A stretch of DNA of 64,000 nucleotides from NCBI GenBank assembly GCA_964387845.1, contig CAYLXA010000013.1, forward strand, positions 1 to 64,000, in the 5' to 3' direction. Positions within the stretch are counted from its first letter, which is position 1. The number at the start of each line of letters is the position of its first letter. Position numbers and translations under genes: made by a program. The notes beneath the pieces were generated by a model. That model saw nothing but the letters and a program-made list of their open reading frames with translations, did not search any database and was not told the origin of the DNA. Shown here in pieces: positions 179 through 43,016 of this stretch. Source of the DNA: an uncultured bacterium. GTDB lineage: Bacteria; Omnitrophota; Omnitrophia; Omnitrophales; Abzuiibacteriaceae.

Positions 179-2479
179 ATGAATTCTTCTCTGAATTACA
201 AACCTTCAATCCAGAAGAGCGTCGCTTTTTTTGTGTTCTTGATATTCACACATACAAGCACAATCGCCGGCCCGGATGCATCATCACTAATTTCCAATTT
301 TAATCAAAACTCTATCTCGCATGCCCGTACCATTCCTATTACGAACGTTTATTCGCGTTCGGAGCTAAGGCAAATTCTTTCAGAGCAAAAAATTCTAGAG
401 GCAGACGGAAAAAATCCACCGACGATTTCGAATCAAGCCAAGCATCCTCCTCATTTTTTTAATAGTGCTGCGGCTAACCAAAATGATTTATTGGATGCGC
501 TCAGGCGGTTCGTGCTGCTTTTAGACAGAGGAGAAAAAAAGCAATTTTTTAATGCAGACTATCTTGCCCTGCATCGTCTTGGAAGAATTCAATCAGAGGC
601 GTCTATTTATCCCGGCGTTAAATTAACATTCATGGCAAAACCGCCGCCGCGTTTTTTAAAGAGAGTTATTGATAAACCGAAATCAAAGAAAGCGGGTTCT
701 TTAATCGTCCAAATTTATCACAAGAAAAATGCGACTACGAATCGCATGCCCGTCGGCATTATCGCCGGTAATTTACAAACGCGGTCCAAAGATCTTTTGC
801 ATATTTTCTTTCTTCAATTAAACAAAGAGTTGCAGGGGATGGGAATTGTGCGGAAAGCGTTTAAACGTATCGGGCATTCTTTGCCCAAAGAAGTTACCAA
901 GATAGAACTCAATATTCTGCATTTTGCGACCCTGACTCAACTGGCACATAGAGCTATTGGTGAGGATCCGGAGTGGGCAAAGGAATTTGATGTGTCTGAT
1001 CTTGTGGTAAAGCAGGACTTCGCGAATTTATACAATGCGCTTGTTGACTTTTTGAAAAGACGGTCAGCAAGACAGGAGCCGATCGCAGGGATTTTCCCAT
1101 CTGATTTTTTAGCAGAAACAGATGAAGGCGCTTTGCTCAGAGAATCCGGTTTTTCAGAGCCGCAATTGGGTTTTCGCGAGTATGAATCGCGTCAAGTGCC
1201 AGGTGAAATACGGGCCGATCTTCATATTATTGCGACCAAAGCAAAAGTGAAAAAGCCGCAAAAATCGGCGATGAAGAAAAAGCCGAATTTTTTCGAAAAT
1301 AGAAATTTTCTGAAAGCTTTTTCTAAATCACCGCTTTTGTTTTTAGACGATCGGCACCGGCGAGTGCTTGAACTTCATTACGGATTAAATGGAAATAAAC
1401 GGCATTCGCTTATAGAAATAGCGCCCTTGATCAATGTCACTACATCAGAACGTGTTCGGCAGCTCGAAGAAGATGCAATGGAAAAAGTAAAATTGTTTTA
1501 TGAAAGCAAATTATGGCATAAAGGTTCGCCAAAGTTTTTAAACACAAGAGGCAAATTGCAGCCAATAATTCTGCAATATATCCTTTCTTTATTACCCCAT
1601 CAATCGGCAAAGAAAGCAAATGATCTGGGCATTGATAACCTTAGAACTCTTTTGTATGCAATAAAACCCAAATCGCTTGTCGGGAGAAAATCGCGGCGCG
1701 ACCGGCGCGAACTGGTTGACGGAATTCTTAGAACCTTTCGGGACCATTTTGATTCAGCCGAAATCCCCGAAACAAAGCCAGATTCTGCCGGCGAAGATAC
1801 AATACGGTCTGAATTACGCAAGAATGCGTTTAATCAAATCCAGTTATCATACACTGACAAAACATTTCAATTCGAAAGCCTGGGCACATCCAACTCAATG
1901 GATGCTTTTATTTTTGACAATGTCGAATTAGCATTGGATCAAGTTGAAGATAATTTGCCGCCAGCGACAACGGACACTCGAAATTCTTTCGGCGGGGCGC
2001 TTGGCATTGATTTGGTTTCAGATCAAATAACAGCAAATCAATCGGATGTGATGCCTATTATCGGTTTGCTGCCGTCCTACGGAAACATTGCTGAAGTGGT
2101 TTTACAAGCGGCAAAGAACATTGACGGCAAATTTCCGTTTGTCGTATTTGTGGAAACACCGCTTCAAAGGCGGACGCTTGAAGCGAGGCTTCCCGACAAT
2201 CGTAACGTTTTGGTCGTGACGGAAGCTAATTTGGATCAACTGATGAATCAAATTCCGGGCCGCGCAGAGCTGCGCGTTGTCGGGAATCACAGTTTCGAAG
2301 ATCGGCGGTATTTTCAGCGGCTTGATATTCTATTGAAAACGCGATATCCGGGCAGAATTGAGCTTAATCCTAAGATGTTTAATCCCAATGAGTTAGATGG
2401 ATTATTGGGCATTGCTGAATTGGCTTCGAATTTAAGATCTAAATTAAGAAAAGCCTGGGCAGTTGCAAGTGCTGCTTAA
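179..2479 (+). CDS. hypothetical 766-aa protein with an N-terminal hydrophobic signal/anchor segment and an internal sigma-70 region-4-like HTH
   Basis: Long ORF with the same codon usage as its neighbours. N-terminal hydrophobic stretch VAFFVFLIFTHTSTIAG. Residues ~388-438 (LDDRHRRVLELHYGLNGNKRHSLIEIAPLINVTTSERVRQLEEDAMEKV) match the sigma-70 region 4.2 consensus. No region 2 recognisable. Confidence 0.6.
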   Translation: MNSSLNYKPSIQKSVAFFVFLIFTHTSTIAGPDASSLISNFNQNSISHARTIPITNVYSRSELRQILSEQKILEADGKNPPTISNQAKHPPHFFNSAAANQNDLLDALRRFVLLLDRGEKKQFFNADYLALHRLGRIQSEASIYPGVKLTFMAKPPPRFLKRVIDKPKSKKAGSLIVQIYHKKNATTNRMPVGIIAGNLQTRSKDLLHIFFLQLNKELQGMGIVRKAFKRIGHSLPKEVTKIELNILHFATLTQLAHRAIGEDPEWAKEFDVSDLVVKQDFANLYNALVDFLKRRSARQEPIAGIFPSDFLAETDEGALLRESGFSEPQLGFREYESRQVPGEIRADLHIIATKAKVKKPQKSAMKKKPNFFENRNFLKAFSKSPLLFLDDRHRRVLELHYGLNGNKRHSLIEIAPLINVTTSERVRQLEEDAMEKVKLFYESKLWHKGSPKFLNTRGKLQPIILQYILSLLPHQSAKKANDLGIDNLRTLLYAIKPKSLVGRKSRRDRRELVDGILRTFRDHFDSAEIPETKPDSAGEDTIRSELRKNAFNQIQLSYTDKTFQFESLGTSNSMDAFIFDNVELALDQVEDNLPPATTDTRNSFGGALGIDLVSDQITANQSDVMPIIGLLPSYGNIAEVVLQAAKNIDGKFPFVVFVETPLQRRTLEARLPDNRNVLVVTEANLDQLMNQIPGRAELRVVGNHSFEDRRYFQRLDILLKTRYPGRIELNPKMFNPNELDGLLGIAELASNLRSKLRKAWAVASAA

Positions 2480-5946: not shown

Positions 5947-7389
<1,443 letters not shown>

Positions 7390-15358: not shown

Positions 15359-16786
15359 TTAAACGATCTGTGAGATCAAATCAAGAAGCGGCTGCTGGAA
15401 TACGCCAAGTAGTACAATTGCGGTCAGAATGCTAATTAAGCAAAACCGGATACCGGTTGGGACATGGATCAAATCCGGCGTCTCGGGCCGCTCGACGTAG
15501 ATTTGACGGATGACGGAGAGATAATAAAAAAGGGATATGACAACACCCAAAACGCCAACCAAGGCAAGCCACATCATGTTTTCTTGAATCACTGCCTGAA
15601 GCAGCATAAATTTAGCAAAAAAGCCGGCTAACGGTGGAATTCCGGCAAGTGACAACAGGGCAATAAACATAGATGCCGCTAAAAGAGGTGAGCGCGCTGC
15701 CAAACCACGCAACCCCGGAATCGATTCATTTTTAAGTGTTTTAGATACCAAAACGAGCGACATAAAAATCGCCAAATTCGCCAGAGCGTAAACCGGCAAG
15801 TAATACAAAACTGCTTGAACGCCCAATTTCGACCCTGCCGCGATTCCCATTAATAGGTAACCTGCATGGCTGATGCTGGAATATCCCAGTAAGCGTTTGA
15901 GACTGCCTTCAAGCTGAAGGAGGGCTCCCAAATTACCGTATAAAAGTGTTGCAGCAGACAGAAGAGCCATTAAAGGCATCCAGATCGGATTTAAATTGTC
16001 GGTGACGGCAAATAAAAATCGGAGCAATGCAGCAAATCCAATTCCTTTCGAAATCGTTGACAAGAACGCTACCGAAGGTGTCGGCGCTCCTTCATAAACA
16101 TCCGGCGCCCAGAGCTGAAACGGAAACGCGGCAATCTTAAACCCGATTCCTGCGATAACCAGGAAAAACCCAAGGAACAAAAAAGAACTTAAATGTGATG
16201 TGGTCTGTAAGTAAATCCGCAGGCTGTCGAATGAAAAACTCTCAGTAATTCCATAAATAAAACTGATTCCATAAATCATCAAAGCCGACGAAAAAAGGCC
16301 CATCAGAAGATACTTAGTTCCGGCTTCAACAGATCTGGTGTCGGTTCTGAGGAATGAGGTTAAAACATATAAGGAAAGCGTCGCCAGTTCGATGGTGATG
16401 AAAAGAGTGAGAAATCCGTTTGCGGAAGAAACGAATAAAGCGCCCAATAATGCTACCAGCAGAATTAAATAAAATTCACCGGCTCGGCTTTTAAAATAAA
16501 TATCGTATTCACGGCTCATGACCACGATGAGAAATGCACATAATATGAAAAATCCTTTCATGAAAATCGAAAAGCTGTCGATTAAAAAAGCGCCGCCAAG
16601 AATTGCCGTTGCTGTTGTTGGAATTTGGGTGGTGGTGATGAATAAAATTGCCAGGCCGAGCAATGTAAGTCTTGAAAGGGCGCCGCCGCCGGTTCTTCGT
16701 CCGCCGAAGCTCTCGATTAAAGTTAAGGCAGTTAATAGAATCAAAGTTCCAATTTCAACGGATAGCGGATGAAAAACAAAGGACAT
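15359..16786 (-). CDS. nuoN: NADH-quinone oxidoreductase subunit N (orphan cluster, copy 1)
   Basis: About 14 TM helices and a NuoN-type WAPDVYEGAPTP motif. Confidence 0.85.
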   Translation of the reverse strand: MSFVFHPLSVEIGTLILLTALTLIESFGGRRTGGGALSRLTLLGLAILFITTTQIPTTATAILGGAFLIDSFSIFMKGFFILCAFLIVVMSREYDIYFKSRAGEFYLILLVALLGALFVSSANGFLTLFITIELATLSLYVLTSFLRTDTRSVEAGTKYLLMGLFSSALMIYGISFIYGITESFSFDSLRIYLQTTSHLSSFLFLGFFLVIAGIGFKIAAFPFQLWAPDVYEGAPTPSVAFLSTISKGIGFAALLRFLFAVTDNLNPIWMPLMALLSAATLLYGNLGALLQLEGSLKRLLGYSSISHAGYLLMGIAAGSKLGVQAVLYYLPVYALANLAIFMSLVLVSKTLKNESIPGLRGLAARSPLLAASMFIALLSLAGIPPLAGFFAKFMLLQAVIQENMMWLALVGVLGVVISLFYYLSVIRQIYVERPETPDLIHVPTGIRFCLISILTAIVLLGVFQQPLLDLISQIV

Positions 16787-18309
16787 TAAAATTCCCCCTG
16801 ATGTGTTAGATCAACGCTTTTTTTAGCTTGGCTGATAATCGATTCAACTGTTGGCCGGATTGAATCCAGCAGAATCATCGGTTGTGTTCCGAAAAGAAGC
16901 AGCCAAATAAGCAAGAAACCGAACGGAAGCCGCGCCCAAAGCGTTTTTGCATCTTTCAAATTCGACCATTTTGGGTCCAATTTTCCGAAAAAGACATTCT
17001 TAACAAGGCGGAGCATGTAAACTGCCGTAATCACAATTCCAAAAATGGCGCCGATTGTTTGCCACCGGTAAGTTTCGAAACTGCCGAAAAAAATCAGAAT
17101 TTCTGAAGCAAAGTTGGCGAAACCGGGAAGTCCGCTCGATGCCAAAGCAGCCATGACAAAACATGTCGCAACAAACGGCATGATTTTGGCCAGTCCGCCA
17201 AGGTTTTCGATCTGTCGTGTATGGGTTTGATCATAAATGAAACCGATTAAAGCGAAACAAAGCGCTGCCATAACGCCGTGTGCAAACATAAAGAAGACCG
17301 TTCCGGTTAACGCTGTTTCGGTCATAGCGCTAAGGCCCAAAAGGGCGTAGCCCATGTGACTGACGCTCGCAAACCCAACCACAAACTTCAAATCCTTTTG
17401 GGCCATGGCCGCCCAGGCGCCATACAAAATATTGATCACGGCCAAAATTGAAATATAGGGAAGCCAAATCCGGGCACCTTCCGGCATGAGGCCCAGCAGA
17501 ATCCGGATGAGGGCGTAAATACCGATTTTTTTCAGAACGCCCGCATGGAGCATGCTGATGGGAGAAGGTGCTGCCGCATAACCGATCGGCGACCAGCTAT
17601 GGAACGGCCAGAGAGATGCGATAACACCAAATCCGAAAATAAAAAATGGCGCGCAGTACTTCTGGAATAAGACGGGAAGCGGTTGGATCGCAAGATAGTT
17701 CTGAATTTCGATCAAATCAAATGTGTAAAGCCCGGTCATTTGATAAAGTGCAAGCAGCCCAATCAAAGACATGACTGCGCCTGCCGTGATGTAAAGCGTG
17801 AGCTTCATTGCACCGTATTCTTTATTCGTGCTTCCCCAGATGGCGATTAAGGGGTACATCGGAATGACTGCCATTTCGTAAAAAAGGTATAAAAAGAAAA
17901 GATCGACGGCGGTAAATACACCAAAAAGACTTGCAATTAAAACCATCAGGAAAACAAAATACTCCTTCACTCTGGTTTCGATCGAAAAAGAAACCATGAC
18001 GGCTGCGAATGAGCAAATGGCGTTCAAAAGAATCATCACGCATCCGATTCCATCAATTCCGGCGTGATAAGAAATGCCGAAAGAGGGCAGCCATTCGGCT
18101 TTGAATAAAAATTGATATCCGGCGGTTTTGGCATCGTAAATCGAAAAGAGGTAAGCCGAAACCGCAAGCGTTGAAAGCGTAATCAGTGTTGCGATCCAGC
18201 GAATCAGCCGCTTGTTTTCCTTAGGCGTGAATCCGATCAAAAATGCGCCCAAAAGAGGCAGCCATGTTAAAGATGGGACAAGTAATTTGGTTGAGTTTAT
18301 GATTTCCAT
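16786..18309 (-). CDS. nuoM: NADH-quinone oxidoreductase subunit M-like (divergent, copy 1)
   Basis: Antiporter-like membrane subunit in the NuoM position. The usual WLPDAH..AP.P motif reads WSPIGYAAAPSP. Confidence 0.7.
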   Translation of the reverse strand: MEIINSTKLLVPSLTWLPLLGAFLIGFTPKENKRLIRWIATLITLSTLAVSAYLFSIYDAKTAGYQFLFKAEWLPSFGISYHAGIDGIGCVMILLNAICSFAAVMVSFSIETRVKEYFVFLMVLIASLFGVFTAVDLFFLYLFYEMAVIPMYPLIAIWGSTNKEYGAMKLTLYITAGAVMSLIGLLALYQMTGLYTFDLIEIQNYLAIQPLPVLFQKYCAPFFIFGFGVIASLWPFHSWSPIGYAAAPSPISMLHAGVLKKIGIYALIRILLGLMPEGARIWLPYISILAVINILYGAWAAMAQKDLKFVVGFASVSHMGYALLGLSAMTETALTGTVFFMFAHGVMAALCFALIGFIYDQTHTRQIENLGGLAKIMPFVATCFVMAALASSGLPGFANFASEILIFFGSFETYRWQTIGAIFGIVITAVYMLRLVKNVFFGKLDPKWSNLKDAKTLWARLPFGFLLIWLLLFGTQPMILLDSIRPTVESIISQAKKSVDLTHQGEF

Positions 18310-18312
18310 AAG

Positions 18313-20151
18313 CTATTGAATTAAAAACAAGTAAATGATAATGACAACACCACCCAAAAAGACAGTCAGGTAGTTTTGAATTTTTCCGGTCTGCAATTTT
18401 CGGGCCCAGCCGCCGAGCCTTGTAAAATTACGTGCAGTGCCGTTCACAAATCCTTCCACAATGGTTTCTTGCTCAAACCGGTTTAAAAAATGAGAGAAAG
18501 GCTTTTGGACGGATTCCAAAATCCAGTCATAAATTGAGTCGATATAGTACTTTTGTGTCAACAACCCGTAAGTATTTTTAAGTTTCTTCTTTATTTTTTG
18601 TGCGGTCCCTGGTTTTCTTAAATATACGTAAGTTGCTGAAAATAAACCACTTACAGAAATTAAAAAGGCCAATACAGGGATAACTTTATTGTGATGAACA
18701 TGAATATCATTCGGATGATGCAAGACCGATTCAATGCCAAAAAAGCCGGCTGTAATCGACAATACCGCAAGCAAAATCATCGGAAGCAGCATCCATTGTG
18801 CGGGTTCGTGGATTTTCTTCCGGCTGTGTGGCTTTCCAAAAAAAGTCATCACAACAGCGCGCGCGATGTAAAACGACGTCAAAAACGCGGTGAACAAGCT
18901 TACCCAAAAAAGGAGAGTGTTTCGTTCGAAAGCAAGCATCAGAATCTCGTCTTTGCTGAAAAATCCGCTCATCGGATAAATGCCGGCAAGTGCAAGCGAA
19001 CCGATCACGAACAGCCACGTCGTAACCGGCATTGATTTTGAAAGCCCGCCCATATTTTTCATGTCTTGCTCATGTGTAGCGTGCAGTACGCTGCCGGCCG
19101 CTAAAAAAAGGAGCGCTTTGAAAAAAGCATGCGTCGTTAAATGATACATGCCGACTCCGACACTGCCGAGCCCGATCGCTATGACCATGTAACCCAGCTG
19201 GCTTAAAGTAGAATAAGCCAGGACGCGCTTTAAATCCGTTTGGACGAGCGCAATCGTTGCCGAAAAAATCGCGGTGAATCCGCCGACATAAGCGATGACA
19301 GAAAGCGCATCTTGCGACAGAGAGAAAAGAAAAAATGTCCGAGCAAGCAAATAAACGCCTGCGGCCACCATTGTTGCTGCGTGAATCAAAGCACTGACGG
19401 GTGTCGGGCCTTCCATCGCATCCGGCAGCCACACGTGAAGCGGAAATTGTGCGGACTTTCCAAGAACGCCGCAAAAAATAGAAACAGCTGCTAAGAAAAT
19501 GAGAGATTCGTTTCCAAGGACTGCTTGCCCAAGGATATGTTCGAGCTTCAGAAAATTAAGCGTCCGCTCTCCGCTACGTCCCGACAAAATCCAAACCAAC
19601 AAAATACCGATCAAAAATCCGAAATCACCGACACGGTTTGTTAGGAATGCTTTTTTGCCGGCATCAGCAGCCGAATCCTTTTCGTACCAAAACCCGATTA
19701 AAAGATAAGAGCTGAGGCCGACCAGCTCCCAAAAGATAAATAGCTGAAGCAAGTTGTTACTGAGCACAATGCCAAGCATTGAAAAGGCAAAAAGAGAAAG
19801 GTAGGCAAAATAACGCGCAAATCCTGGGTCATCTTCCATGTATTCGATTGAATAATAGAAAACAGCGCTTCCGACGCCAGTCACGATCAAAAGCATAATG
19901 AGTGATACAGCATTAATCAAAATACCGAATTCAAGCACAAGGCCCGGAAGTCTGATCCAGGGAACCGATATTTCCAGGAATCCATGGCCGCCTTGCGAGA
20001 AAAATTCATAGGCGAAACTGCAAGAAATCAAAAAGGAGGCAAAAATGCCGGCAAAAGCTAAGGCGGCACTTAATTTCGGCCGGTTGAGCGTGAAAAACGT
20101 AATCAAAACCGCAGAAGCAAGCGGTAAAAATAATATAAGCCAGGGGTTCAT
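18313..20151 (-). CDS. nuoL: NADH-quinone oxidoreductase subunit L (copy 1)
   Basis: HVWLPDAMEGPTPVSALIHAATMVAAGVY signature and a C-terminal extension with a long helix, as in NuoL. Confidence 0.9.
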   Translation of the reverse strand: MNPWLILFLPLASAVLITFFTLNRPKLSAALAFAGIFASFLISCSFAYEFFSQGGHGFLEISVPWIRLPGLVLEFGILINAVSLIMLLIVTGVGSAVFYYSIEYMEDDPGFARYFAYLSLFAFSMLGIVLSNNLLQLFIFWELVGLSSYLLIGFWYEKDSAADAGKKAFLTNRVGDFGFLIGILLVWILSGRSGERTLNFLKLEHILGQAVLGNESLIFLAAVSIFCGVLGKSAQFPLHVWLPDAMEGPTPVSALIHAATMVAAGVYLLARTFFLFSLSQDALSVIAYVGGFTAIFSATIALVQTDLKRVLAYSTLSQLGYMVIAIGLGSVGVGMYHLTTHAFFKALLFLAAGSVLHATHEQDMKNMGGLSKSMPVTTWLFVIGSLALAGIYPMSGFFSKDEILMLAFERNTLLFWVSLFTAFLTSFYIARAVVMTFFGKPHSRKKIHEPAQWMLLPMILLAVLSITAGFFGIESVLHHPNDIHVHHNKVIPVLAFLISVSGLFSATYVYLRKPGTAQKIKKKLKNTYGLLTQKYYIDSIYDWILESVQKPFSHFLNRFEQETIVEGFVNGTARNFTRLGGWARKLQTGKIQNYLTVFLGGVVIIIYLFLIQ

Positions 20152-20155
20152 GCAG

Positions 20156-20455
20156 TTACCATTTTAATGTTGTGAGCGTTCCGGTATCGATTTTACCTTT
20201 TTGACGGAACAAAAGTACGGCGATCGCAAGCCCGATTGCAACTTCACTTGCTGCAATCGCAATAATAAAAAGAGCAGCGACCTGGCCGCCCAAGTGATTG
20301 CCGAAGCTCGAGAATGCAATGAACGATAAATTGACGGCATTCAGCATGATTTCAGCGGAAAGCAGCATCATAATTAAATTCGTGCGGCGAATCATGCCTA
20401 ACGCGCCGATCGTGAACAAAACACCGCTCAAGATTAAATAATGATGGAGCGTCAT
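20156..20455 (-). CDS. nuoK: NADH-quinone oxidoreductase subunit K (copy 1, both conserved Glu present)
   Basis: 99 aa, 3 TM helices, LSAEIMLNAV and AASEVAIGLAI. Confidence 0.85.
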   Translation of the reverse strand: MTLHHYLILSGVLFTIGALGMIRRTNLIMMLLSAEIMLNAVNLSFIAFSSFGNHLGGQVAALFIIAIAASEVAIGLAIAVLLFRQKGKIDTGTLTTLKW

Positions 20456-20949
20456 ACCTCTTTCCTCGTGAGTGAAATAACGCCAAGGATACCGACCAAA
20501 AGAACTAGCGACACGAGTTCAAATTGCAAAAGGTATTGGGAAAACAGAGTGCGCCCGACGCTTTCGATAGTTCCCAAAACAGATACGGATTTTAATTCGG
20601 TATTTGCCGAAGCATGGACAACGATCCAGATTTCAAGAAAAAAAGCGGTAATGACCGCATAAATCGTCAACCGCTTGAAGGATGAAGCCGTTTTTTGTCC
20701 CTCTTCGGATGTATTAACACCCATCAGCATCAGCATGAATAGGAAAAGAACCAAAATGGCACCCGCGTAAATTAAAATTTGAATAATGGCTACAAAATAA
20801 GCTTCAAGCAGCACAAAAAGACCGGAAAGGGAAAACATCGTAATGACAAGTGCGAGAACGCCTTGGGTCGGGCGTTTTGTGAAGACAACATAAAGAGCGC
20901 TTAAAATGGCGGCGGCCGAGAATAGATAAAACCAAAAAATTTGGGTCAT
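20452..20949 (-). CDS. nuoJ: NADH-quinone oxidoreductase subunit J (copy 1)
   Basis: 165-aa membrane protein in the position and of the length of NuoJ, upstream of nuoK. Confidence 0.75.
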   Translation of the reverse strand: MTQIFWFYLFSAAAILSALYVVFTKRPTQGVLALVITMFSLSGLFVLLEAYFVAIIQILIYAGAILVLFLFMLMLMGVNTSEEGQKTASSFKRLTIYAVITAFFLEIWIVVHASANTELKSVSVLGTIESVGRTLFSQYLLQFELVSLVLLVGILGVISLTRKEV

Positions 20950-33854: not shown

Positions 33855-35336
33855 TTATACCTCCTGGAATTCAAATTTCAGGAGCTGTGATAAAATTTTC
33901 CCGGTCCAACGGTAAATATTGTTCTGGGCGACGATTTCGCGCATTTTACGCATGCGTTTCTCTTTTTCCTCCTGCGGCATCGCGAACGCTTGCTCAATCG
34001 CATCTGCAAATTGCTCCGAATCGTAAGGATTGATCAAAATCGCATCCGACAACTCTCTGGATGCGCCTGTGAATTTTGACAGGATCAGAGCACCGCCCAA
34101 ATCCTCGCGCGCCGCAACAAATTCCTTTGAAACCAAATTCATTCCGTCGTGAAGCGAGCTCACAACACAAACATCCGCCATCCGGTAAAGGGCTAGAATG
34201 TCGTCATAACTCACATAAGTACGCTTTAATACGATAGGTGCCCACGAATCAGTAGAATGTTTCCAGTTAATTTCCTCTACAAGCCCGTTAATTTCATCAT
34301 TCAGATGTTTATAGCGAGGAATGTGAATTCTTGAGATTTGGCCTATTTGAAGGAAAATAAATTTTTCTTTGTATTGAGGATATTTTTCAAGAAACCGGTC
34401 TATCGCGCGCAGTCTTTCGGGAATGCCCTTAGTGTAATCAATCCGGTCTACGCCGACGATTAATTTCAAATCACCGATTGAATACTCATCACGCAAGTTC
34501 TGAATCCGTGACCGGGTTTTGTCCGACGATGCTTGTTCCGAAATGGCTTCGAAATCAACCGAAATCGGAAATGCGCGTATCAGTGCTTCATGATTTTGAA
34601 ACGAAACCGAGTCACGTTCACGGTCAATCCGGCTTTCAACCTCGCGGTCAACCGTTGCGAAAAAATTATCCATGTGGTAACGAATCTGAAATCCGACAAG
34701 GTCGCACGATAAGAATCCTTCCAAAATTTCCTGTTTTTGCGGGCAAATCCTAAATACTTCCGGATTCGGCCACGGAATATGCCAGAAAATCGATGTGATG
34801 ATATTCAAACGCCCGGAATCACGTAGATATTTGGCAACGAGTGCGAGCTGAAAATCCTGGATCCAGACAAAAGCTTTTTCATTTCCGACTTCTGCTAAAA
34901 CCGCATCCGCGAACATTTTGTTTACCTTCTGATAGGATTTCCAGTCGGCGTCGTTAAATAACGGCCTCGTATAAGCCACATGGCACAATGGCCAAAGCCC
35001 CTCATTGGAAAAACCGTAATAGTATTTGTCACGGTCTTCTTTGCTGAGAAACATGCGTTTTAACTGGTAAGAAGGATTGTGCGGCGGGAGCATGACTTTT
35101 GAATTTGCATCGACCGCTTTTTTGTCGTGCTCACTTGAGGAGGCAGCAATCCAAGTTCCTTGGACGGCTTCCATGACGGGGCTAAGGGCGGTTACGAGGC
35201 CGCCCGGTTCGCGCTGACAGATTAATTTACCGCTTTGCAGAACATGCTTGAACGGCTGCCGATTGGAGACTACGATGAGTTTATAGTCGGACAAACGTTC
35301 TTGTATGGTTTTTTGAAGCGTTTCTTTGGTCCACAT
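33855..35336 (-). CDS. otsA: alpha,alpha-trehalose-phosphate synthase (GT20)
   Basis: LIVVSNRQP N-terminus and GT20-conserved regions (GGLVTAL, WIQDFQLALV). Confidence 0.88.
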   Translation of the reverse strand: MWTKETLQKTIQERLSDYKLIVVSNRQPFKHVLQSGKLICQREPGGLVTALSPVMEAVQGTWIAASSSEHDKKAVDANSKVMLPPHNPSYQLKRMFLSKEDRDKYYYGFSNEGLWPLCHVAYTRPLFNDADWKSYQKVNKMFADAVLAEVGNEKAFVWIQDFQLALVAKYLRDSGRLNIITSIFWHIPWPNPEVFRICPQKQEILEGFLSCDLVGFQIRYHMDNFFATVDREVESRIDRERDSVSFQNHEALIRAFPISVDFEAISEQASSDKTRSRIQNLRDEYSIGDLKLIVGVDRIDYTKGIPERLRAIDRFLEKYPQYKEKFIFLQIGQISRIHIPRYKHLNDEINGLVEEINWKHSTDSWAPIVLKRTYVSYDDILALYRMADVCVVSSLHDGMNLVSKEFVAAREDLGGALILSKFTGASRELSDAILINPYDSEQFADAIEQAFAMPQEEKEKRMRKMREIVAQNNIYRWTGKILSQLLKFEFQEV

Positions 35337-35540: not shown

Positions 35541-36977
35541 TTAGATTGCGAAGAAATTGACGAGTGCGACCTGGACGAAGGAAATCACGCTGGAAGGAAA
35601 AAGGCCGATTGCGACGGTTCCAAAAAGCGCCACAACAACGCAGGCAATCGCCAAATTGGAAGCCGTAACCGGTGAATGTTTGTCGCTGTGCGTGAGGTAC
35701 ATCGCGCGGACAATTTTGAAATAATAAACCGCTGCGATGGCGCTGTTGATGGCGGCTGCAACTGCGAGCATGATGAAACTATGCTGAATCGCACTCGCAA
35801 ACACAAACCATTTTCCGATAAATCCCGCAAGCGGTGGAATTCCGGCCAAAGACAACATAAAAATCAGCATGCAGGCCGCTAAAAATGGATTTCGTTTAGA
35901 AAGGCCGTTTAACGCCTCAATGCGGCTTGAGCCCTCGCTCTCCTCAATGGCGGCAAGCGTCAAAAAAGCGCCCATATTGGTAAAGATGTAGGTGATGATA
36001 TAAATGAAAACTGCTTCAACGCCGGTTCCTGAGGCCGTGGCAAGTCCCATTAATATGTAGCCGGCTTGCGCAACGCTGGAATAGGCCAAAAGGCGTTTGG
36101 CACTGGCCTGAGAGACAGCCGTGATGTTGCCGATCGTCATAGTCAAAATGGAAAGCACAACCAAAATCGAGCTCCATTCGGCGTGGAAATTTTGAAAAGC
36201 GCTGAATAAAACACGGCAGATCACCAAAAAGCCAATGCCTTTCGGTGCGACGGTCAAAAACGCCGCAATCGGTGTCGGCGCACCTTCATAAACATCCGGC
36301 GCCCAGGCATGAAACGGCACGGATGAAATCTTGAATCCGAATCCGACCAACAGGAACACAAGCGCTACCTTTGCCGTGGCGATGATGGAAGGGCTTGCGG
36401 CTTTAAAAACGGCGTTCATTTGCGTGAGCTCTAACGTTCCCGTGAGGCCAAACAAAATCGACATGCCGAAAAGCATGCAGGCTGATGAAACGCCGCCGAA
36501 GAGAAGGTACTTGAGTGATGCTTCGCTCGAGCGTTTATCGAATTTACGGAAACCGGTCAATATATAGGAAGACAGCGAAACCGATTCGATCGCGAGGAAA
36601 ATCATCAGCAAATTGGTGGTAGAACCCATCAAAACGAGCAGGAATAGCAGAAAAGTGACCAAGAAATAGAATTCTCCCTTTTGCTTTTCCGGAATCAGTT
36701 TGGATTGAATCACGGAAGCGATGGCAAGGCTTGTCGCAATCGCAAGGCCGATCTGGAGAAAATAGCTGAACACATCGTAATAAAAGAGCCCCGAAAAAAG
36801 CGACATGGCTTTTTGCGGATAAGGCAAAAGCCAGAGGGAAACCGTAATGCCGATGAGCGCAATGAGGCCGTTCACTTTTTGTTCGAGGCCAAAAAGATCG
36901 AGCACCAAAACAAGCAGTGCAGCGCCAATTAAGACGGCGTGCGGAATAAAATACGGTAAGCTCGCGAGTGCGTCCAT
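35541..36977 (-). CDS. nuoN: NADH-quinone oxidoreductase subunit N (copy 2)
   Basis: HAWAPDVYEGAPTPIAAF motif, 478 aa. Confidence 0.88.
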   Translation of the reverse strand: MDALASLPYFIPHAVLIGAALLVLVLDLFGLEQKVNGLIALIGITVSLWLLPYPQKAMSLFSGLFYYDVFSYFLQIGLAIATSLAIASVIQSKLIPEKQKGEFYFLVTFLLFLLVLMGSTTNLLMIFLAIESVSLSSYILTGFRKFDKRSSEASLKYLLFGGVSSACMLFGMSILFGLTGTLELTQMNAVFKAASPSIIATAKVALVFLLVGFGFKISSVPFHAWAPDVYEGAPTPIAAFLTVAPKGIGFLVICRVLFSAFQNFHAEWSSILVVLSILTMTIGNITAVSQASAKRLLAYSSVAQAGYILMGLATASGTGVEAVFIYIITYIFTNMGAFLTLAAIEESEGSSRIEALNGLSKRNPFLAACMLIFMLSLAGIPPLAGFIGKWFVFASAIQHSFIMLAVAAAINSAIAAVYYFKIVRAMYLTHSDKHSPVTASNLAIACVVVALFGTVAIGLFPSSVISFVQVALVNFFAI

Positions 36978-36978
36978 A

Positions 36979-38448
36979 TTACATTAAACTTCCGATTTGG
37001 GCCAAAAGCGCGTTCATGCTCGGCGTCATCACATCAAGAATCAGTTTTGGATAAACGCCCAGGACTAAAATAATCACCATGAGCGGAATAATCGTAAAAA
37101 GCTCGCGCGCGTTGATATCCGTCAGTTTTTCCCACTTCTGGTTAAACGGCCCGAGCAATACTTTTTGAATCATGTAAAGCAGGTAGCAGGCAGCCAAGAG
37201 GATTCCGATGCAGGAAATTCCGGTGATCCAGGGATAAATTTTGAATGCGCCGAGCAATACCATAAATTCACTGACGAAACCGCTCAGGCCCGGCAAACCC
37301 ATCGAAGCGAACGTTACAAAAATCAAAACGCCCGAATAAACACTCATTTTCACACCCAAGCCGCCGAAGGCGTTCATGTCGCGTGTATGAGCGCGGTCAT
37401 ATAAAACACCAACCAGCAAGAAGAGCGCGCCGGTGATGGTTCCGTGGTTGAACATTTGAAGCATGGCGCCGTTTAAGCCGTTTTGCGTAAAAACCGCGAG
37501 GCCCAACAGCACAAAACCCATGTGGCTGACGCTGGAATAAGCGACCATTTTTTTGAAATCGGTTTGCGCAAACGCTACGAATCCGCCGTAAACGATTCCG
37601 ATTGCAGCCAAAATGCCCATCGCAAGCGAAAACCAATGTGCCCCAAGCGGCAAAATCGGATAGCTGATCCTGAAAAATCCGTAGGTCCCCATTTTAAGAA
37701 GCACGGCCGCCAGAATCACGCTGATCGGTGTCGGCGCTTCAACGTGCGCATCCGGAAGCCACGTGTGGAACGGGAAAACCGGGACTTTGATCGCAAACCC
37801 GAGGAAAAACGCGAGAAAAATGATTTTTTGGAATTCCAAGCTAAAGGAATTGTTGCGGAGCGCGATCATGTCAAACGTATGCGGCGTGCTCGAGAAAAAG
37901 AGCGCCAAAATACCCAGCAGCATGAACAAACTTCCGGCCAATGTGTAAATAAAAAACTTAATTGCCGCATATTCTTTGCGCGGTCCGCCCCAGATGCCGA
38001 TCAGGAAATACATCGGAACCAGCACCACTTCCCAAAAAACGTAAAAAAGGAAAAGATCGAGAGACAAAAATGTGCCGAACATACCGGTTTCAAGCAACAA
38101 ATAAAGCGCGAAGTATTCTTTTACGCGGTCTTTGATGCCGTAACTTGCGACACAAGCCAGAAGGGAAATCAAGCCGGTGAGGAAAATCATCGTTACGCTG
38201 ATGCCGTCGATTCCGAGTGAATAAAAAACGTTCAACGGCTCGATCCAGCTGATTTTTTCCGCAAATTGAATGCCGGTGTTGGCGGAGTCAAAGTTAAGCG
38301 TGACGTAAGTCGTGAGCAGAAACACGACTGCGCTAACCGACGTTGCGATGGTCCGGATTAATTTTGTGTTTTCCTTCGGCGCGAGCATCGTCAAAATCAT
38401 GCCGACGACCGGCAAAAATATAATGGAAGACAGAATTGGAAAATTCAT
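36979..38448 (-). CDS. nuoM: NADH-quinone oxidoreductase subunit M (copy 2)
   Basis: HTWLPDAHVEAPTPISVILAAVLLKMGTYG motif. Confidence 0.9.
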   Translation of the reverse strand: MNFPILSSIIFLPVVGMILTMLAPKENTKLIRTIATSVSAVVFLLTTYVTLNFDSANTGIQFAEKISWIEPLNVFYSLGIDGISVTMIFLTGLISLLACVASYGIKDRVKEYFALYLLLETGMFGTFLSLDLFLFYVFWEVVLVPMYFLIGIWGGPRKEYAAIKFFIYTLAGSLFMLLGILALFFSSTPHTFDMIALRNNSFSLEFQKIIFLAFFLGFAIKVPVFPFHTWLPDAHVEAPTPISVILAAVLLKMGTYGFFRISYPILPLGAHWFSLAMGILAAIGIVYGGFVAFAQTDFKKMVAYSSVSHMGFVLLGLAVFTQNGLNGAMLQMFNHGTITGALFLLVGVLYDRAHTRDMNAFGGLGVKMSVYSGVLIFVTFASMGLPGLSGFVSEFMVLLGAFKIYPWITGISCIGILLAACYLLYMIQKVLLGPFNQKWEKLTDINARELFTIIPLMVIILVLGVYPKLILDVMTPSMNALLAQIGSLM

Positions 38449-38462
38449 CGAGTAAATCTCCT

Positions 38463-40373
38463 TTATTTAAAAACTCCGTAAAGAATCCACAAAATTCCGA
38501 CAAAAACGAAAAATAGATAATGATGGATAAATCCGGTTTGGAAAAGCCGCAGCACGGAACTCAAAGTTTGCGTGATCCATCCCGTAAAGTTCACCAAGCC
38601 GTCAACGATATGCTGATCGATCCAAAATTTTACCCGAGCACTCCATTTGCCGAAGCGGCCCGTATCATTCACGATGCGGTCGACAACTTTTTGATCGAAT
38701 TGAAATAAGAAATCCGCCTTCCATTGAAATAAGCGGCCGAATGTGGCGCTATAAATTTCATCGAAATAAAGTTTGTTGAGAGAAACCGTGTAAAGCGGTT
38801 TCAGGCTTTGTGCGATTTTAGCCGGAATGTCGGTTCTCACCAGATAAAACACGTAAGCCATTACAGCACCTAGAGTTGCAACAACTATCGATAGAATCAT
38901 CAGCGTGTAATTTGGATGAATTTCCTCCGGATGGCCGCCGTGCAAAAAGGTTTGAAACCAATGATGCATGAAAGGCGAACCGGGAATACCGGCACCGACC
39001 GCAAACACAGCCAAAATCATCAAAGGAACCGTCATCGACGCAGGGGATTCGTGCGCGTGAATGTGGCCGCGTGTTTTTCCGAAGAAAGTCAAAAATGTGA
39101 GCCGGAACATGTAAAAGGAAGTTAAAAATGCAGTGATAACAAGCAGCGCCAAGATAACGTAATGCCCGGACTCGTAAGCGCTGAGCAGAATTTCATCTTT
39201 GCTCCAAAATCCGGCAAACGGCGGAATGCCTGCGATTGCGATTGTCGCGATTAAAAATGTCCACGCCGTTTTCGGCATATGCTTGAACAGCCCGCCCATT
39301 TCACGAATGTCCTGCGTACCTGTGCCGTGAATCACGGAACCGGCGCCCAAAAAGAGCAGTGCTTTGAAAAACGCGTGCGTCATTAAATGAAAAGAGCCGG
39401 CGCTGAATCCTCCGCAGCCCAAAGCTGCGATCATATAACCAAGCTGAGAAATCGTTGAATAGGCGAGCACTTTTTTAATATCCGTTTGCGTCAGTGCAAT
39501 AAAAGCACCGATGCAAGCGGTTGTGGTTCCGATAACAGCCACAACGTCAGCGGAATTTGGAAACGCTTCATAAAGCGGCGTGAGGCGCGCAACCATGTAA
39601 ACGCCTGCGGCCACCATTGTCGCGGCGTGAATCAAAGCACTGACGGGTGTCGGGCCTTCCATCGCATCCGGAAGCCATACGTGAAGCGGAAACTGCGCCG
39701 ATTTTCCGATGGCACCGCAAAAGAGGAAAATTCCGGCAATTCCGACAATCCAGGCATTGTGATGATGGAAGAAGTCGTGATTGAAATCCGCGAAAAGTAC
39801 GGTCCCGGTGGAATAAAAAAGAAGTGCAATGCCGATGAAAAATCCGACGTCGCCGATCCGGTTTGTGATAAACGCTTTCTTGCTGGCGTCAGAAGCGGAT
39901 TTCTTTTCAAACCAGAATCCGATCAAAAAGTAAGAGCAAAGGCCGACAAGCTCCCAGAAAATATACATTTGGACAAGATTGGTTGCGAGCACAAGGCCGA
40001 GCATCGAAAATAAAAAGAGCGCCAAGTAAGCGAAAAAGCGCGAATACCGCGCATCTTCATGCATGTAGCCTGTCGAGTAAATCACGATGAGTGAGCCGAT
40101 GAATGTGACGACAAAAAGCATCATCGCGGTCAAAGGATCCACCATAAATCCGAATTGAAGCGCTTTAGCGCCGAAGGGAAGCCAGTCAAAATTGATGAGA
40201 ATCGTCTCGCCTTTCAGAACCGGCTGAATGACGATCATCGACAAAATAAAAGAACCGACGCTGGCTGCGATGGTGACGAGCGAGGCTTTGTGCTTCAGCG
40301 TTTTTCCGAAGAAAATATTAATCGTAAACGCCGCGAGCGGAAGTAATGGAATTAAAGCGAGTTGAGTTACCAT
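38463..40373 (-). CDS. nuoL: NADH-quinone oxidoreductase subunit L (copy 2)
   Basis: HVWLPDAMEGPTPVSALIHAATMVAAGVY motif, 636 aa. Confidence 0.92.
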   Translation of the reverse strand: MVTQLALIPLLPLAAFTINIFFGKTLKHKASLVTIAASVGSFILSMIVIQPVLKGETILINFDWLPFGAKALQFGFMVDPLTAMMLFVVTFIGSLIVIYSTGYMHEDARYSRFFAYLALFLFSMLGLVLATNLVQMYIFWELVGLCSYFLIGFWFEKKSASDASKKAFITNRIGDVGFFIGIALLFYSTGTVLFADFNHDFFHHHNAWIVGIAGIFLFCGAIGKSAQFPLHVWLPDAMEGPTPVSALIHAATMVAAGVYMVARLTPLYEAFPNSADVVAVIGTTTACIGAFIALTQTDIKKVLAYSTISQLGYMIAALGCGGFSAGSFHLMTHAFFKALLFLGAGSVIHGTGTQDIREMGGLFKHMPKTAWTFLIATIAIAGIPPFAGFWSKDEILLSAYESGHYVILALLVITAFLTSFYMFRLTFLTFFGKTRGHIHAHESPASMTVPLMILAVFAVGAGIPGSPFMHHWFQTFLHGGHPEEIHPNYTLMILSIVVATLGAVMAYVFYLVRTDIPAKIAQSLKPLYTVSLNKLYFDEIYSATFGRLFQWKADFLFQFDQKVVDRIVNDTGRFGKWSARVKFWIDQHIVDGLVNFTGWITQTLSSVLRLFQTGFIHHYLFFVFVGILWILYGVFK

Positions 40374-40675
40374 TTTAAAAGGTCGATTTCGTCTGTGTAA
40401 ATGGTGTCCTGGTTTCTATAGATAGAAAGTACGATCGCAAGGCCGACGCCGGCTGCTGCGGCCGCCATCACAATGATAAAGACCGCAAAAATCTGCCCCA
40501 CTTCCGGGCTTGTATTGGTGTAGCGCGAGAAGGCGACCAAATTAACATTGACGGAATTAATCATGATTTCGATCGCGATTAAAATTCCGACAATATGGCG
40601 GCGCGTCAAAACGCCGTAAAGCCCGATGCAAAAAAGAATCGAGGTAAACACCAAAATATGCTGAAGCGGTACCAT
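40367..40675 (-). CDS. nuoK: NADH-quinone oxidoreductase subunit K (copy 2; TM3 Glu replaced by Ala)
   Basis: 102 aa with IAIEIMINSV present, but TM3 reads VMAAAAAGVGLAI instead of ...AAAEA.... Confidence 0.85.
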   Translation of the reverse strand: MVPLQHILVFTSILFCIGLYGVLTRRHIVGILIAIEIMINSVNVNLVAFSRYTNTSPEVGQIFAVFIIVMAAAAAGVGLAIVLSIYRNQDTIYTDEIDLLKW

Positions 40676-41178
40676 TATTGGTCTCCCCGTGCAATCACAA
40701 TTGCGCCGATCAAAGCCACGACCAAAACAATCGAAATAATTTCAAACGGAAGCACATAATTTCCCATAAACGCTTTTCCGATTGCGACGGCGTCCACGGT
40801 GGTCAAGTTGTCTTTCACCGGCCACGCCGTGTGAGTCATTACTCGGACTAGAAACCCGATTAAAATCGCAATACCGATCGCGACCGGAATTTTTTGCCGG
40901 TTCGATGTCGGAATGGAGGTGTCGCCCATTTTTGAAGTCATCATAACGGCGAAAATAACGAGCGTGACGATGGCGCCCACATACAGCAAAATTTGAATGG
41001 CGCCCAGAAATTCGGCGTGCATGACAAAATAGGTTCCAGCAACACCCAAAAGTGCAAATACGAGCCCGAGCGCGGCGTGGAAAATATTCCGTACGGTCAC
41101 CGCAAGAAGCGCTGACAGTAACGTGATGCCAAAAATGGCATAGATTCCGTATTTGGTAATCGCTGCTAGTACGTCCAT
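40675..41178 (-). CDS. nuoJ: NADH-quinone oxidoreductase subunit J (copy 2)
   Basis: 167-aa membrane protein in the NuoJ position. Confidence 0.78.
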   Translation of the reverse strand: MDVLAAITKYGIYAIFGITLLSALLAVTVRNIFHAALGLVFALLGVAGTYFVMHAEFLGAIQILLYVGAIVTLVIFAVMMTSKMGDTSIPTSNRQKIPVAIGIAILIGFLVRVMTHTAWPVKDNLTTVDAVAIGKAFMGNYVLPFEIISIVLVVALIGAIVIARGDQ

Positions 41179-41189
41179 AAATTCCTTAT

Positions 41190-42329
41190 TTATTCTGCGT
41201 ATCGATAAACCCGCTTCTTGGGAAGCATCGGTTTATTGATTGCCAGTAAAATAAAAACACTGAAAGCCAAAACAACACCTGTCGTGACAAAGTTCATCGG
41301 GAATGCCGAGCTTTTCCAGAGACAAGCGACAAAAATATTGACTAATGATAACGGAAGCAAAAATTTCCACGCAAAACCCATCAGCTGATCGACGCGCAGG
41401 CGCGGAAATGTGCCGCGGAACCACATCATCGTGAAAATAAGTGCGTATGTTTTAATCAAAAACCAAACCCAGCTGGGGAGAAGAGGGCCTTGCCAGCCGC
41501 CCAGATAAACGGTTGCGACCAGGGCTGAAACCGTAAACACATTCATAAATTCGGCCATATAAAAGAGCGCGAACTTCATGCCGCTGTATTCCGTGTGAAA
41601 CCCGGCGATGATTTCGGATTCGGCTTCCGGAAGGTCAAACGGCGTGCGGTTGACTTCGGCAACGGCACAGAGAAAGAAAATAAAAAATCCGACAATTCCC
41701 CAAGGCGAAAATACGAACCAATTCATTCCGGTTTGAGCTTCCACGATTTTTACTGTCGAAAAGGAGCCGACCATTAAAAGAACGGGAACCACGGAAAGAA
41801 TAAACGGAATTTCATACGAAATCATTTGTGCGACGGAACGCATTCCGCCTAAAAGTGAAAACTTATTCCGGGAACCCCACGCAGCCGTGAAAATAAAAAC
41901 GGTTGTGGTGCCTGAAATCGCGAGGAAAAACAAAACGCCGATATTAAGATCGGCCGCGATCATGTTGCGGCCGAAGGGAAGCACGGCAAACACCAAAAGC
42001 GCCGGAATCACAATCGCGATCGGCGCCAGCGTGTGCGCAAATTTGTCGGCACCGGTCGGCACGACGTCTTCTTTTGTCATCATTTTAACGCCGTCCGCCA
42101 AAGGCTGCAGAAGACCGAACGTTCCGACACGGTTTGGGCCGTAACGATTTTGAACACGAGCTAAAATTTTGCGTTCAAACCATGTGAGGTACATCATCGT
42201 AAGTGGCCCGAAAATAGCGACGCCCACAATCGGAATTAAAATCGCGACAATGACCACAAGCCAATCAGGCAGAATGGGCGTTACGATACTCACAATCCCT
42301 GCTTTTAAATTGACGAATAATTGATCCAT
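41190..42329 (-). CDS. nuoH: NADH-quinone oxidoreductase subunit H
   Basis: NuoH-conserved regions (YLTWFERKILARVQNRYGPNRVG). The start is taken at the internal ATG two nt after the nuoI stop; the K/R-rich upstream extension in the ORF track is probably untranslated. Confidence 0.9.
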   Translation of the reverse strand: MDQLFVNLKAGIVSIVTPILPDWLVVIVAILIPIVGVAIFGPLTMMYLTWFERKILARVQNRYGPNRVGTFGLLQPLADGVKMMTKEDVVPTGADKFAHTLAPIAIVIPALLVFAVLPFGRNMIAADLNIGVLFFLAISGTTTVFIFTAAWGSRNKFSLLGGMRSVAQMISYEIPFILSVVPVLLMVGSFSTVKIVEAQTGMNWFVFSPWGIVGFFIFFLCAVAEVNRTPFDLPEAESEIIAGFHTEYSGMKFALFYMAEFMNVFTVSALVATVYLGGWQGPLLPSWVWFLIKTYALIFTMMWFRGTFPRLRVDQLMGFAWKFLLPLSLVNIFVACLWKSSAFPMNFVTTGVVLAFSVFILLAINKPMLPKKRVYRYAE

Positions 42330-42330
42330 G

Positions 42331-42927
42331 TTATGAATTTGCCGGCGGAGTTGGTGGTGTTTGTGGAGCAGCTGCAGCCGCTTTCGCTTGGGCCAATTTC
42401 GCCGCAGCTTCCTGTGCCTTTTTGGCCTCTTCTTTTTTACGGCGGTCTTCAGCGATGCGCGTTGCATCGGTCGGCCGTATCTTCATAAAATATTCCGCCG
42501 GTTTCAGGAGCCTGTCTTTCGTGTAATTCAAATCATTGAAACGGCCGTATTCTCCGAGCTCAAACGTGTGGTCCATGTAAATCGCGTCAAACGGGCAAAC
42601 TTCTTCGCAAATACCGCAGTTCATGCAGATGGAGTAATCGATATTGAATACTTTCGGGCGCTTCAGCGGTTTGTTTTGCTCATCGGCGTCTTTGACGATG
42701 TGAATGCATTTGGGCGGGCATTCTTTCGCGCAAATATCGCACGCCACACAGCGAAGATTATCCGGCGTTGCATCATAAATTAAAAAAGGAAAATTGCGAA
42801 AACGCTCTTTTTCCGGCAAACGCTCTTCCGGAAACTGAACTGTCGTCAAATGATCTTTTGAAAAATAGCTGGCCACAAAGTTTTTAAGCGTGACCGCCAT
42901 TCCTTTTAATACACCTAACCCAAACAT
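42331..42927 (-). CDS. nuoI: NADH-quinone oxidoreductase subunit I (2x[4Fe-4S]) with an A/K/E/P-rich C-terminal tail
   Basis: CVACDICAKECP and CMNCGICEEVCP ferredoxin motifs, plus a ~40-aa low-complexity tail. Confidence 0.9.
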   Translation of the reverse strand: MFGLGVLKGMAVTLKNFVASYFSKDHLTTVQFPEERLPEKERFRNFPFLIYDATPDNLRCVACDICAKECPPKCIHIVKDADEQNKPLKRPKVFNIDYSICMNCGICEEVCPFDAIYMDHTFELGEYGRFNDLNYTKDRLLKPAEYFMKIRPTDATRIAEDRRKKEEAKKAQEAAAKLAQAKAAAAAPQTPPTPPANS

Positions 42928-42936
42928 CTAAACTCC

Positions 42937-43016
42937 TAGTTGTAAGTTGTAAGTGGTAAGAGATAAGTAAAAAGCTTTTAACTTAACACTTATCACTTAC
43001 CACTTATGCCTTATCT
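42937..43016. repeat. GTAAGT-heptad hairpin R3 at the nuoD/nuoI junction
   Basis: Left arm tagttgtaagttgtaagtggtaagagataagta, right arm aacttaacacttatcacttaccacttatgccttatct. Confidence 0.7.

Follow-up and report, generated by a model that had tools for sequence, protein, structure and literature searches.

An internal sigma-70 region 4 as putative cargo of a small modular protein from an uncultured Omnitrophota bacterium

What might a lone sigma-70 region 4, a helix-turn-helix (HTH) domain of sigma factors, be doing in the interior of a protein that lacks every other sigma region? The question is raised by a 64,000-nucleotide stretch of DNA from an uncultured bacterium of the Omnitrophota (family Abzuiibacteriaceae; GenBank assembly GCA_964387845.1, contig CAYLXA010000013.1, positions 1 to 64,000; the window in what follows), near the beginning of which an open reading frame (ORF) at 179..2479 on the forward strand starts with ATG, stops after residue 766 and recurs as an identical copy on an independent Logan assembly contig (L001). 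The answer preferred here, held tentatively and with slightly less than even confidence, is that this 766-residue protein is the minimal member of an undescribed and very rare modular 'beads-on-a-string' family, in which a recurrent pentapeptide, R-[S/A]-E-L-R, marks processing or docking sites. Judged by its sequence relationships, region 4 is one of many interchangeable captured cargo domains of that family, and belongs to no sigma or anti-sigma factor.

The identity of the HTH itself emerges consistently from several searches. Pfam Sigma70_r4 (PF04545) scores 29 bits (E 7.8e-7; gathering cut-off 24.1) over residues 389-438 (nt 1343-1492), in agreement with an initial annotation that had placed a lone region 4 at residues ~388-438, and is the sole Pfam match at E<=10 in the protein. 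Full-length sigma models of NCBIfam (RpoD, RpoS, RpoH and others) align by their last ~60-70 positions only, every PDB sequence match of the protein is to sigma domain 4, and PHROGs matches it in region 4 alone, to a sigma factor family. Regions 1.2, 2 and 3 were found neither in the whole protein nor in its isolated N-terminal domain, whether in Pfam and NCBIfam (cut-off E<=10) or in PDB searches, and no cryptic region 2 was seen; the initial annotation was correct on this absence of regions 2 and 3, and its view of the architecture as non-standard, neither sigma nor anti-sigma, holds for what proves to be a modular protein with a leader. A GerE-type C-terminal HTH (PF00196), the mark of LuxR/GerE proteins, was not the best model in Pfam, which likewise shows no receiver domain.

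Comparison with sigma-70 domain 4 of RpoD, SigA and RpoS gives 33-54% identity between many sigma region-4 segments and the 766-residue protein, which keeps both the LELHYGLNG motif of region 4.1 and the E-R-x-R-Q residues of the recognition helix. Against Escherichia coli sigma-70 (RpoD), whose residue numbering is used here, identity over region 4 is 33% and equivalents of R554, E585, R586, R588 and Q589 are retained, the last four of these being base-reading residues in the E. coli protein. Of the basic patch by which activators are contacted, part has turned acidic, D432 and E435 standing in for K593 and R596. As modelled, region 4 is structurally intact and of the group-1/2 type. Unlike that of sigma factors, however, it is internal, with 328 residues after it and no regions 1.2, 2 or 3, and its host is a modular protein that bears a leader and contains no cysteine; on its sequence, the 766-residue protein is no sigma factor.

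Relatives were sought exhaustively with HMMER among 1.84 billion protein representatives. One relative, P0008 (3,491 aa), aligns with residues 87-550 (49% identity), region-4 motif included, while three others, P0009 (1,788 aa), P0013 (1,250 aa) and the fragment P0037, share just the C-terminal ~200 residues; over that part, identity to the four is 28-40% (phmmer E 6e-5 to 1.5e-25). Of two descriptions in the initial annotation, that of an orphan survives only in so far as the region-4 module is shared by P0008 alone, and that of a stand-alone region-4 module gives way to a three-piece member of a modular R[SA]ELR family. The 90% cluster of each member contains one or two sequences of about 15 billion. 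A metagenome scan recovered P0008 and P0009 only, and scans of GTDB genomes found nothing for the whole protein, the module alignment giving a single region-4 match in a metagenome-assembled genome of the Patescibacteria. A word-indexed homologue search, given the whole protein, a C-terminal profile or the C-terminus of P0013, returned the query alone or nothing; it missed P0008 and P0013 themselves, so its negatives are uninformative for the family. No relatives of the protein occurred on viral contigs, PADLOC gave no match for it and PHROGs no whole-protein match.

From these alignments a family grammar can be read: a leader and conserved box, one to ~ten unrelated modules bounded by R-[S/A]-E-L-R, and a C-terminal domain. 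By BLASTP, the 766-residue protein splits into three colinear blocks of P0008 whose ends fall on the motif (Table 1). The cargo of P0009 and P0013 comprises two RidA copies, a methyltransferase, a Pol-beta nucleotidyltransferase and HATPase_c, and that of P0008 includes region 4 and a methyltransferase at residues 3037-3155. All are of cytoplasmic type (region 4, S-adenosylmethionine-dependent methyltransferase, RidA/L-PSP, Pol-beta nucleotidyltransferase, HATPase_c), and the modules are mutually unrelated, with no paralogous pair among them. P0008 was also considered as a carrier of extra cryptic region-4 copies and holds one real copy only, together with one non-significant partial match. 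The grammar, taken as pentapeptide, C-terminal domain and tail, and avoidance of cysteine, is without counterpart in Pfam, NCBIfam, PADLOC, PHROGs, PDB or the literature searched, where RSELR and RAELR returned unrelated text matches only.

The pentapeptide is the most countable part of this grammar. R[SAV]ELR occurs three times in the 766-residue protein, 12 times in P0008, five times in P0009 and three times in P0013, against an expectation from composition-preserving shuffles of 0.003-0.03 copies (0.003 for the 766-residue protein, 0.03 for P0008), and it is present in no other ORF of at least 80 aa, in any frame, across all loci examined. In the 766-residue protein the copies start at residues 60, 543 and 695, and a variant, RSKLR, at 753. 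Elsewhere the motif lies next to recognisable domains. In P0013, HATPase_c occupies residues 924-1039 and the very next residue, 1040, opens an RSELR; P0009 has RSELR at 638, ahead of RidA from 651, and RVELR at 880, beyond its second RidA copy; and the methyltransferase of P0008 has RSELR on its N-terminal side, at 3012. As its codons vary (CGT TCG GAG CTA AGG; CGG TCT GAA TTA CGC; CGC GCA GAG CTG CGC), selection is on the peptide and not on the DNA, and a DNA-level repeat or recombination site is thereby ruled out. Around the second motif of the 766-residue protein, ~45 flanking residues have almost wholly diverged from P0008, and the pentapeptide is identical. The AlphaFold confidence score (pLDDT) is below 50 around the inter-module motifs, consistent with flexible linkers. 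In P0008 (L008), a proline variant, RPELR at 294-298, and a near-copy, RPELE at ~408-412, flank a hydrophobic hairpin region, which suggests that its putative membrane-embedded part is also treated as a punctuated module.

At the other end of the grammar stands a C-terminal domain of ~170 aa, unmatched in Pfam or NCBIfam, which ends LR[S/A]xLRxxWxxAxAA-COOH. Every member of the family terminates in A-x-A-A-COOH (KAWAVASAA in the 766-residue protein), a tail that recalls the small apolar tails seen by tail-specific proteases and ClpX, and that is offered as a lead only. Cysteine is nearly avoided throughout: there are none in the 766 residues, 1 in the 3,491 of P0008, 2 in the 1,788 of P0009 and 1 in the 1,250 of P0013, giving 4 in 7,295 residues for the family vs ~0.7% across 25 ordinary proteins that the window encodes.

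The genomic position of the gene provides a further line of evidence. Downstream of it lie polA, coaE, rho, rpmE, prfA and prmC, and in a closely related genome the same slot 5' of polA is occupied by the gene for P0008. Neighbouring proteins of the two genomes are 96% (Rho), 92% (AroA), 92% (PolA) and 90% (RF1) identical, or 75% (CoaE) and 72% (PrmC) where less conserved, while the 766-residue protein and P0008 are only 38-50% identical and differ in content by ~2,700 aa; the family locus upstream of polA is hypervariable between the two relatives. G+C content at third codon positions (GC3) is 0.40 in both family genes vs 0.50-0.56 in conserved neighbours. The gene for P0013 lies inside an arginine operon and that for P0009 adjoins an FAD-dependent oxidoreductase gene near bipA, so that the homologue and neighbourhood survey envisaged in the initial annotation ended with four relatives in 1.84 billion proteins and, across the loci of the 766-residue protein, P0008, P0009 and P0013, unrelated housekeeping contexts with no evident common partner gene. 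Directly 5' of the 3,491-aa gene, the P0008 genome encodes a PilT-like T2SSE ATPase of 360 aa (L008 8756..9838; L009 76..1158).

Where such a protein would act depends largely on how its leader is read, here heuristically from hydropathy and charge. Residues 14-32 (SVAFFVFLIFTHTSTIAGP) are uncharged, with a mean Kyte-Doolittle value of 1.43, and fall short of what a 19-residue membrane helix usually requires. K8 and K13 lie in the n-region and are followed by a nine-residue core, VAFFVFLIF, and by TIA/G, which obeys the -3/-1 rule and is a possible signal peptidase I site; no basic residue occurs within 15 residues C-terminal of the core. Since the leader contains no cysteine, a lipoprotein signal is ruled out, and it has no twin arginine either. 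Overall it looks like a cleavable Sec signal peptide and less like a membrane anchor: of the hydrophobic signal or anchor segment noted in the initial annotation, the segment and its signal-peptide shape are retained, and the anchor finds no support. On this leader, the 766-residue protein is predicted to be exported. Three of the four full-length members have a signal-like leader; the fourth, P0009, has a two-helix hydrophobic hairpin and no leader, such that, on its sequence, its bulk must be cytoplasmic. In P0008 and P0013, long stretches free of charge are compatible with either topology. The conserved box after the leader is near-identical in P0008, where it reads SHARPIPTSNVYSRAELR, and exists in degenerate form in P0013.

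Between leader and C-terminal part, the cargo module proper spans residues 65-542 (~480 aa, pI 9.9). Its N-domain, 60% identical to P0008, and region 4 (~60%) are the best conserved parts of the protein. Isolated as 262 residues, the N-domain had no Pfam match and no significant PDB sequence match, and the AlphaFold model of it is of low confidence (pLDDT 30-76). A GNAT-like reading, prompted by a QGMGIV loop and the order of strands and helices, was discarded: neither Pfam nor PDB sequences support it, the model is of low confidence, and P0008 does not keep the loop. The lysine-rich character of the linker ahead of region 4 is conserved in P0008 (KIKDPAKKAEMPKKKKPE). Within the helical tail, three short helices at residues ~461-494 (pLDDT 67-76) may, tentatively, form a second HTH-like unit; this region also gave a weak, non-significant match to DUF4096 (E 0.04).

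Table 1. Features of the 766-residue protein and of its gene, with positions in the window, followed by the BLASTP blocks shared with P0008.
Feature	Residues	Nucleotides	Strand	Remarks
Whole ORF		179..2479	+	766 aa + stop; shortest known R[SA]ELR-family member
Leader	1-31	179..271	+	signal-peptide-like by hydropathy and charge; homologous to P0008 at 40% identity
Conserved post-leader box SHARTIPITNVYS, then first RSELR		314..370	+	near-identical in P0008
First RSELR	60-64	356-370	+	follows post-leader box
N-domain of cargo module	89-350	443..1228	+	pI 9.7; predicted mixed alpha/beta
Lysine-rich linker (KAKVKKPQKSAMKKKP...)	351-384	1229..1330	+	pI 10.9; just before region 4
Sigma-70 region 4 (domain 4) HTH	385-442	1331..1504	+	Pfam, NCBIfam, PDB, AlphaFold
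Basic helical tail of module	443-542	1505..1804	+	poorly conserved, low identity to P0008
Second RSELR	543-547	1805..1819	+	boundary between cargo module and C-terminal part
Acidic, poorly structured spacer	548-604	1820..1990	+	pI 4.1; pLDDT <50 at model start
Family-defining C-terminal domain	605-766	1991..2476	+	predicted Rossmann-like five-stranded alpha/beta with long terminal helix
RAELR	695-699	2261-2275	+	within C-terminal domain
RSKLR	753-757	2435-2449	+	within C-terminal domain
Leader block	23-96			P0008 19-95; 40% identity (BLASTP)
Region-4 module block	60-547			P0008 938-1429; 50% identity; starts and ends exactly on RSELR
C-terminal block	520-766			P0008 3257-3491; 38% identity (BLASTP)

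On the reading preferred here, the R[SA]ELR pentapeptides would be processing or docking sites at which modules are released or displayed, and the region-4 module would bind nucleic acid at a -35-like site or the beta-flap of RNA polymerase; the roles of -35-binding regulator or sigma mimic, put forward in the initial annotation, would be in keeping with the equivalents of base-reading residues and with the strongly basic module. Of all this, the architecture, the enrichment of the motif, the depletion of cysteine and the hypervariable locus are observed, and cleavage, cellular location and the target of region 4 belong to the interpretation. A bolder version would make R[SA]ELR a signal dedicated to processing, in bacterial polyproteins of a novel type: a single cysteine-free precursor with leader, swappable cargo and a conserved handling domain with an ssrA-like AxAA tail would be cut at the pentapeptides into separate proteins, of which one, encoded here, would be a free region-4 module that binds beta-flap or -35 DNA, whether in the producing cell or in a target. 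This version must be regarded as doubtful.

Several observations weigh against the preferred reading. Firstly, the sample is tiny, at four full-length members and one fragment. Secondly, predicted location is contradictory across the family (the 766-residue protein exported, P0009 cytoplasmic, P0008 either), and an exported region 4 would be without DNA or polymerase to bind unless delivered into another cell. Thirdly, further copies of the motif lie within the folded C-terminal domain, where their positions vary by member; a binding motif would account for these no less well than a cleavage site. The invariant residues of that domain are T, N, D, G and P in a generic fold, and no family member has a protease domain or a conserved Cys/His/Ser triad. 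Finally, region 4 itself departs from the sigma pattern in two respects: the equivalent of R584 is serine in the 766-residue protein (arginine in P0008), and the turn of the HTH bears a one-residue insertion. The same turn insertion (VGVTSRERVRQLE) and the EIAPLV motif of this region 4 are found in P0027, a protein of 113 aa on an 874-bp contig that is probably the C-terminal fragment of an ordinary group-1/2 sigma factor. Because P0027 is sigma-like and has the insertion, the latter need not disable region 4; the likeness of the two sequences also hints at the lineage from which the region-4 cargo was captured.

What else might explain such a protein? Unlikely, if attractive on several counts, is an exported multi-effector that delivers cytoplasm-type modules to prey, host or competitor, in which region 4 would compete for the beta-flap or for -35 elements. 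Such a role would suit the signal-peptide-like leader of three of the four full-length members, the near-avoidance of cysteine even in enzyme-like cargo, the combination of conserved termini with variable internal cargo at a locus that is hypervariable between close relatives, the cytoplasmic type of that cargo and the conserved lysine-rich tract adjoining region 4. It sits poorly with the leaderless P0009, with cargo types that are not classical toxins, and with proteins and neighbourhoods in which no secretion-system gene, RTX repeat, cysteine protease domain (CPD), type IX secretion system (T9SS) C-terminal domain or toxin domain was found.

The nearest known parallels to such an arrangement are MARTX multi-effector toxins and gingipain-type polyproteins, with which the R[SA]ELR family shares fixed ends and variable cargo (as a functional analogy only), potentially cuttable linkers between modules, and cargo that differs between close relatives. 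Unlike either, it marks off its modules by a fixed pentapeptide, a candidate cleavage site. The RTX repeats, cysteine protease domain and type I secretion system (T1SS) context of MARTX toxins are missing: Pfam, NCBIfam and PADLOC gave no MARTX or RTX features in the 766-residue protein, P0008, P0009 or P0013, and no T1SS genes lie nearby. Gingipain-type proteins of the T9SS end in a beta-sandwich Por_Secre_tail domain, whereas the C-terminus of the 766-residue protein is predicted to be Rossmann-like alpha/beta.

Improbable, on present evidence, is a membrane-tethered transcription module, whereby the leader would anchor region 4 until a cut at the first R[SA]ELR freed a cytoplasmic binder, in a manner that would resemble pro-sigma-K or the regulated intramembrane proteolysis of anti-sigma/sigma-E. 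The conserved box and motif directly after the leader, an intact region 4 with its DNA-reading residues kept and a basic cargo module all fit this proposal, as do the hairpin-like hydrophobic stretches of larger members, whose positive flanks allow a cytoplasmic bulk. The positive-inside rule, however, puts the bulk of the 766-residue protein outside, there being two lysines before the core and no basic residue in the 15 after it; neither a region 2 partner nor a site-2-type protease is encoded nearby, and the unrelated enzyme cargo and cysteine avoidance of other members are left unexplained.

There is also a small chance that the ORF is a decaying remnant, a non-functional deletion derivative of a P0008-like giant in which region 4 has no role. 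It shares its slot with the giant, with neighbours that are 90-96% identical, the loss of hydrophobic hairpin modules alters its predicted topology, its GC3 is low and its divergence fast. Decay is harder to reconcile with a frame intact over 2.3 kb, with retention of all elements of the grammar, with two deletion joints that both fall exactly on the motif, and with an N-domain and region 4 that are the best conserved parts; nor does GC3 single out the 766-residue gene, because the giant has the same value. A divergent sigma, a PhyR-like mimic or a component of a split sigma of the SigO-RsoA kind, with region 2 too diverged or encoded elsewhere, is highly improbable: the region-4 match is above the Pfam cut-off and group-1-like, but no region 2 or 3 signal appears at E<=10 or in a profile search of PDB, the domain before region 4 is predicted (at low confidence) to be mixed alpha/beta and not all-helical, the 328 residues after it include a domain common to proteins without sigma parts, and neither a receiver fusion nor, in the 61 kb downstream, an adjacent small region-2 partner gene was found, the window reaching no more than 178 nt upstream of the ORF.

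It is worth considering how far region 4 travels elsewhere. The same HMMER search returned proteins of 500-1,700 aa (P0010, P0011, P0012, P0016-P0019, P0021-P0023 and P0026) that carry five to nine tandem units of ~80 residues, each with a region-4-like HTH (IELKYGLNG...), and of these P0010 starts with a sigma region-2-like segment. P0020 and P0067 have several region-4-like units each, and P0030 joins an ATPase-like N-terminus to one region 4 and a DnaA-C-like HTH. All of these proteins share the ELxYGLNG motif with the 766-residue protein but are without R[SA]ELR, the shared C-terminal domain and the leader, and constitute separate families, of which no description was found. Judged by sequence, region 4 outside canonical sigma factors is not unique to the 766-residue protein.

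Another comparison is with giant proteins from uncultivated bacteria, Omnitrophota among them, for which a 2023 preprint proposes post-translational cutting into several products and notes that the points of cleavage are unknown (10.1101/2023.11.21.568195). Those proteins are very long, modular and from groundwater-type metagenomes (10.1101/2023.11.21.568195), and the R[SA]ELR family resembles them in being long and modular, in its origin in groundwater-type metagenomes and in a suspected cutting into multiple products; the giants of the preprint exceed it 10-100-fold in length and abound in domains for surface, adhesion and protease functions. Sigma domains and a punctuation motif were absent from the two Omnitrophota giant-protein preprints examined. 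The window contains a large protein of its own, an ORF of 3,628 aa at 45891..56777 (-) with 3.2% cysteine and an Asp-rich, calcium-binding-like N-terminus, which resembles a giant surface protein; a comparable PKD/TSP3/Flg_new_2 protein of 4,347 aa lies on L004 near the gene for P0009. The 3,628-aa ORF was considered as a paralogue of the 766-residue protein and rejected, BLAST showing no similarity and the ORF being rich in cysteine.

The rest of the window is occupied by ATP synthase, two NADH dehydrogenase clusters, trehalose synthesis, a porin and similar housekeeping genes, among which a few features merit record. Rho (5947..7389, +) has an Arg/Asp-rich low-complexity insertion, N-terminal and ahead of its Rho_N domain. 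The NADH-dehydrogenase-type clusters, at 15359..20949 (-) and 35541..45374 (-), both encode subunit 6 and L/M/N-like large subunits, and the latter additionally encodes 49-kDa, 30-kDa, 20-kDa, NuoH and NuoI-like subunits. An nhaA-I RNA (Rfam RF03057; 35380..35433, -; 44.1 bits vs a gathering score of 37) sits 5' of a trehalose-6-phosphate synthase-like gene (33855..35336) and of a trehalose-phosphatase/DUF5752/TreT cluster, a context that is not one of cation transport.

Returning to the question with which we began, the 766-residue protein presents sigma region 4 as what appears to be portable cargo outside any sigma or anti-sigma architecture, and a portable region 4 bears on possible ways in which -35 elements or the beta-flap of RNA polymerase could be targeted by bacteria or by those that compete with them. 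The weightier point concerns the family as a whole, in which an explicit and countable punctuation mark separates unrelated domains and is accompanied by almost complete avoidance of cysteine and by conservation of the C-terminal domain and its tail. The smallest member, which has a single module between two boundary motifs, makes a tractable construct for the question of whether punctuation means processing. Should the pentapeptide indeed be a processing signal, large modular proteins of bacteria would have gained their first explicit grammar of cleavage.

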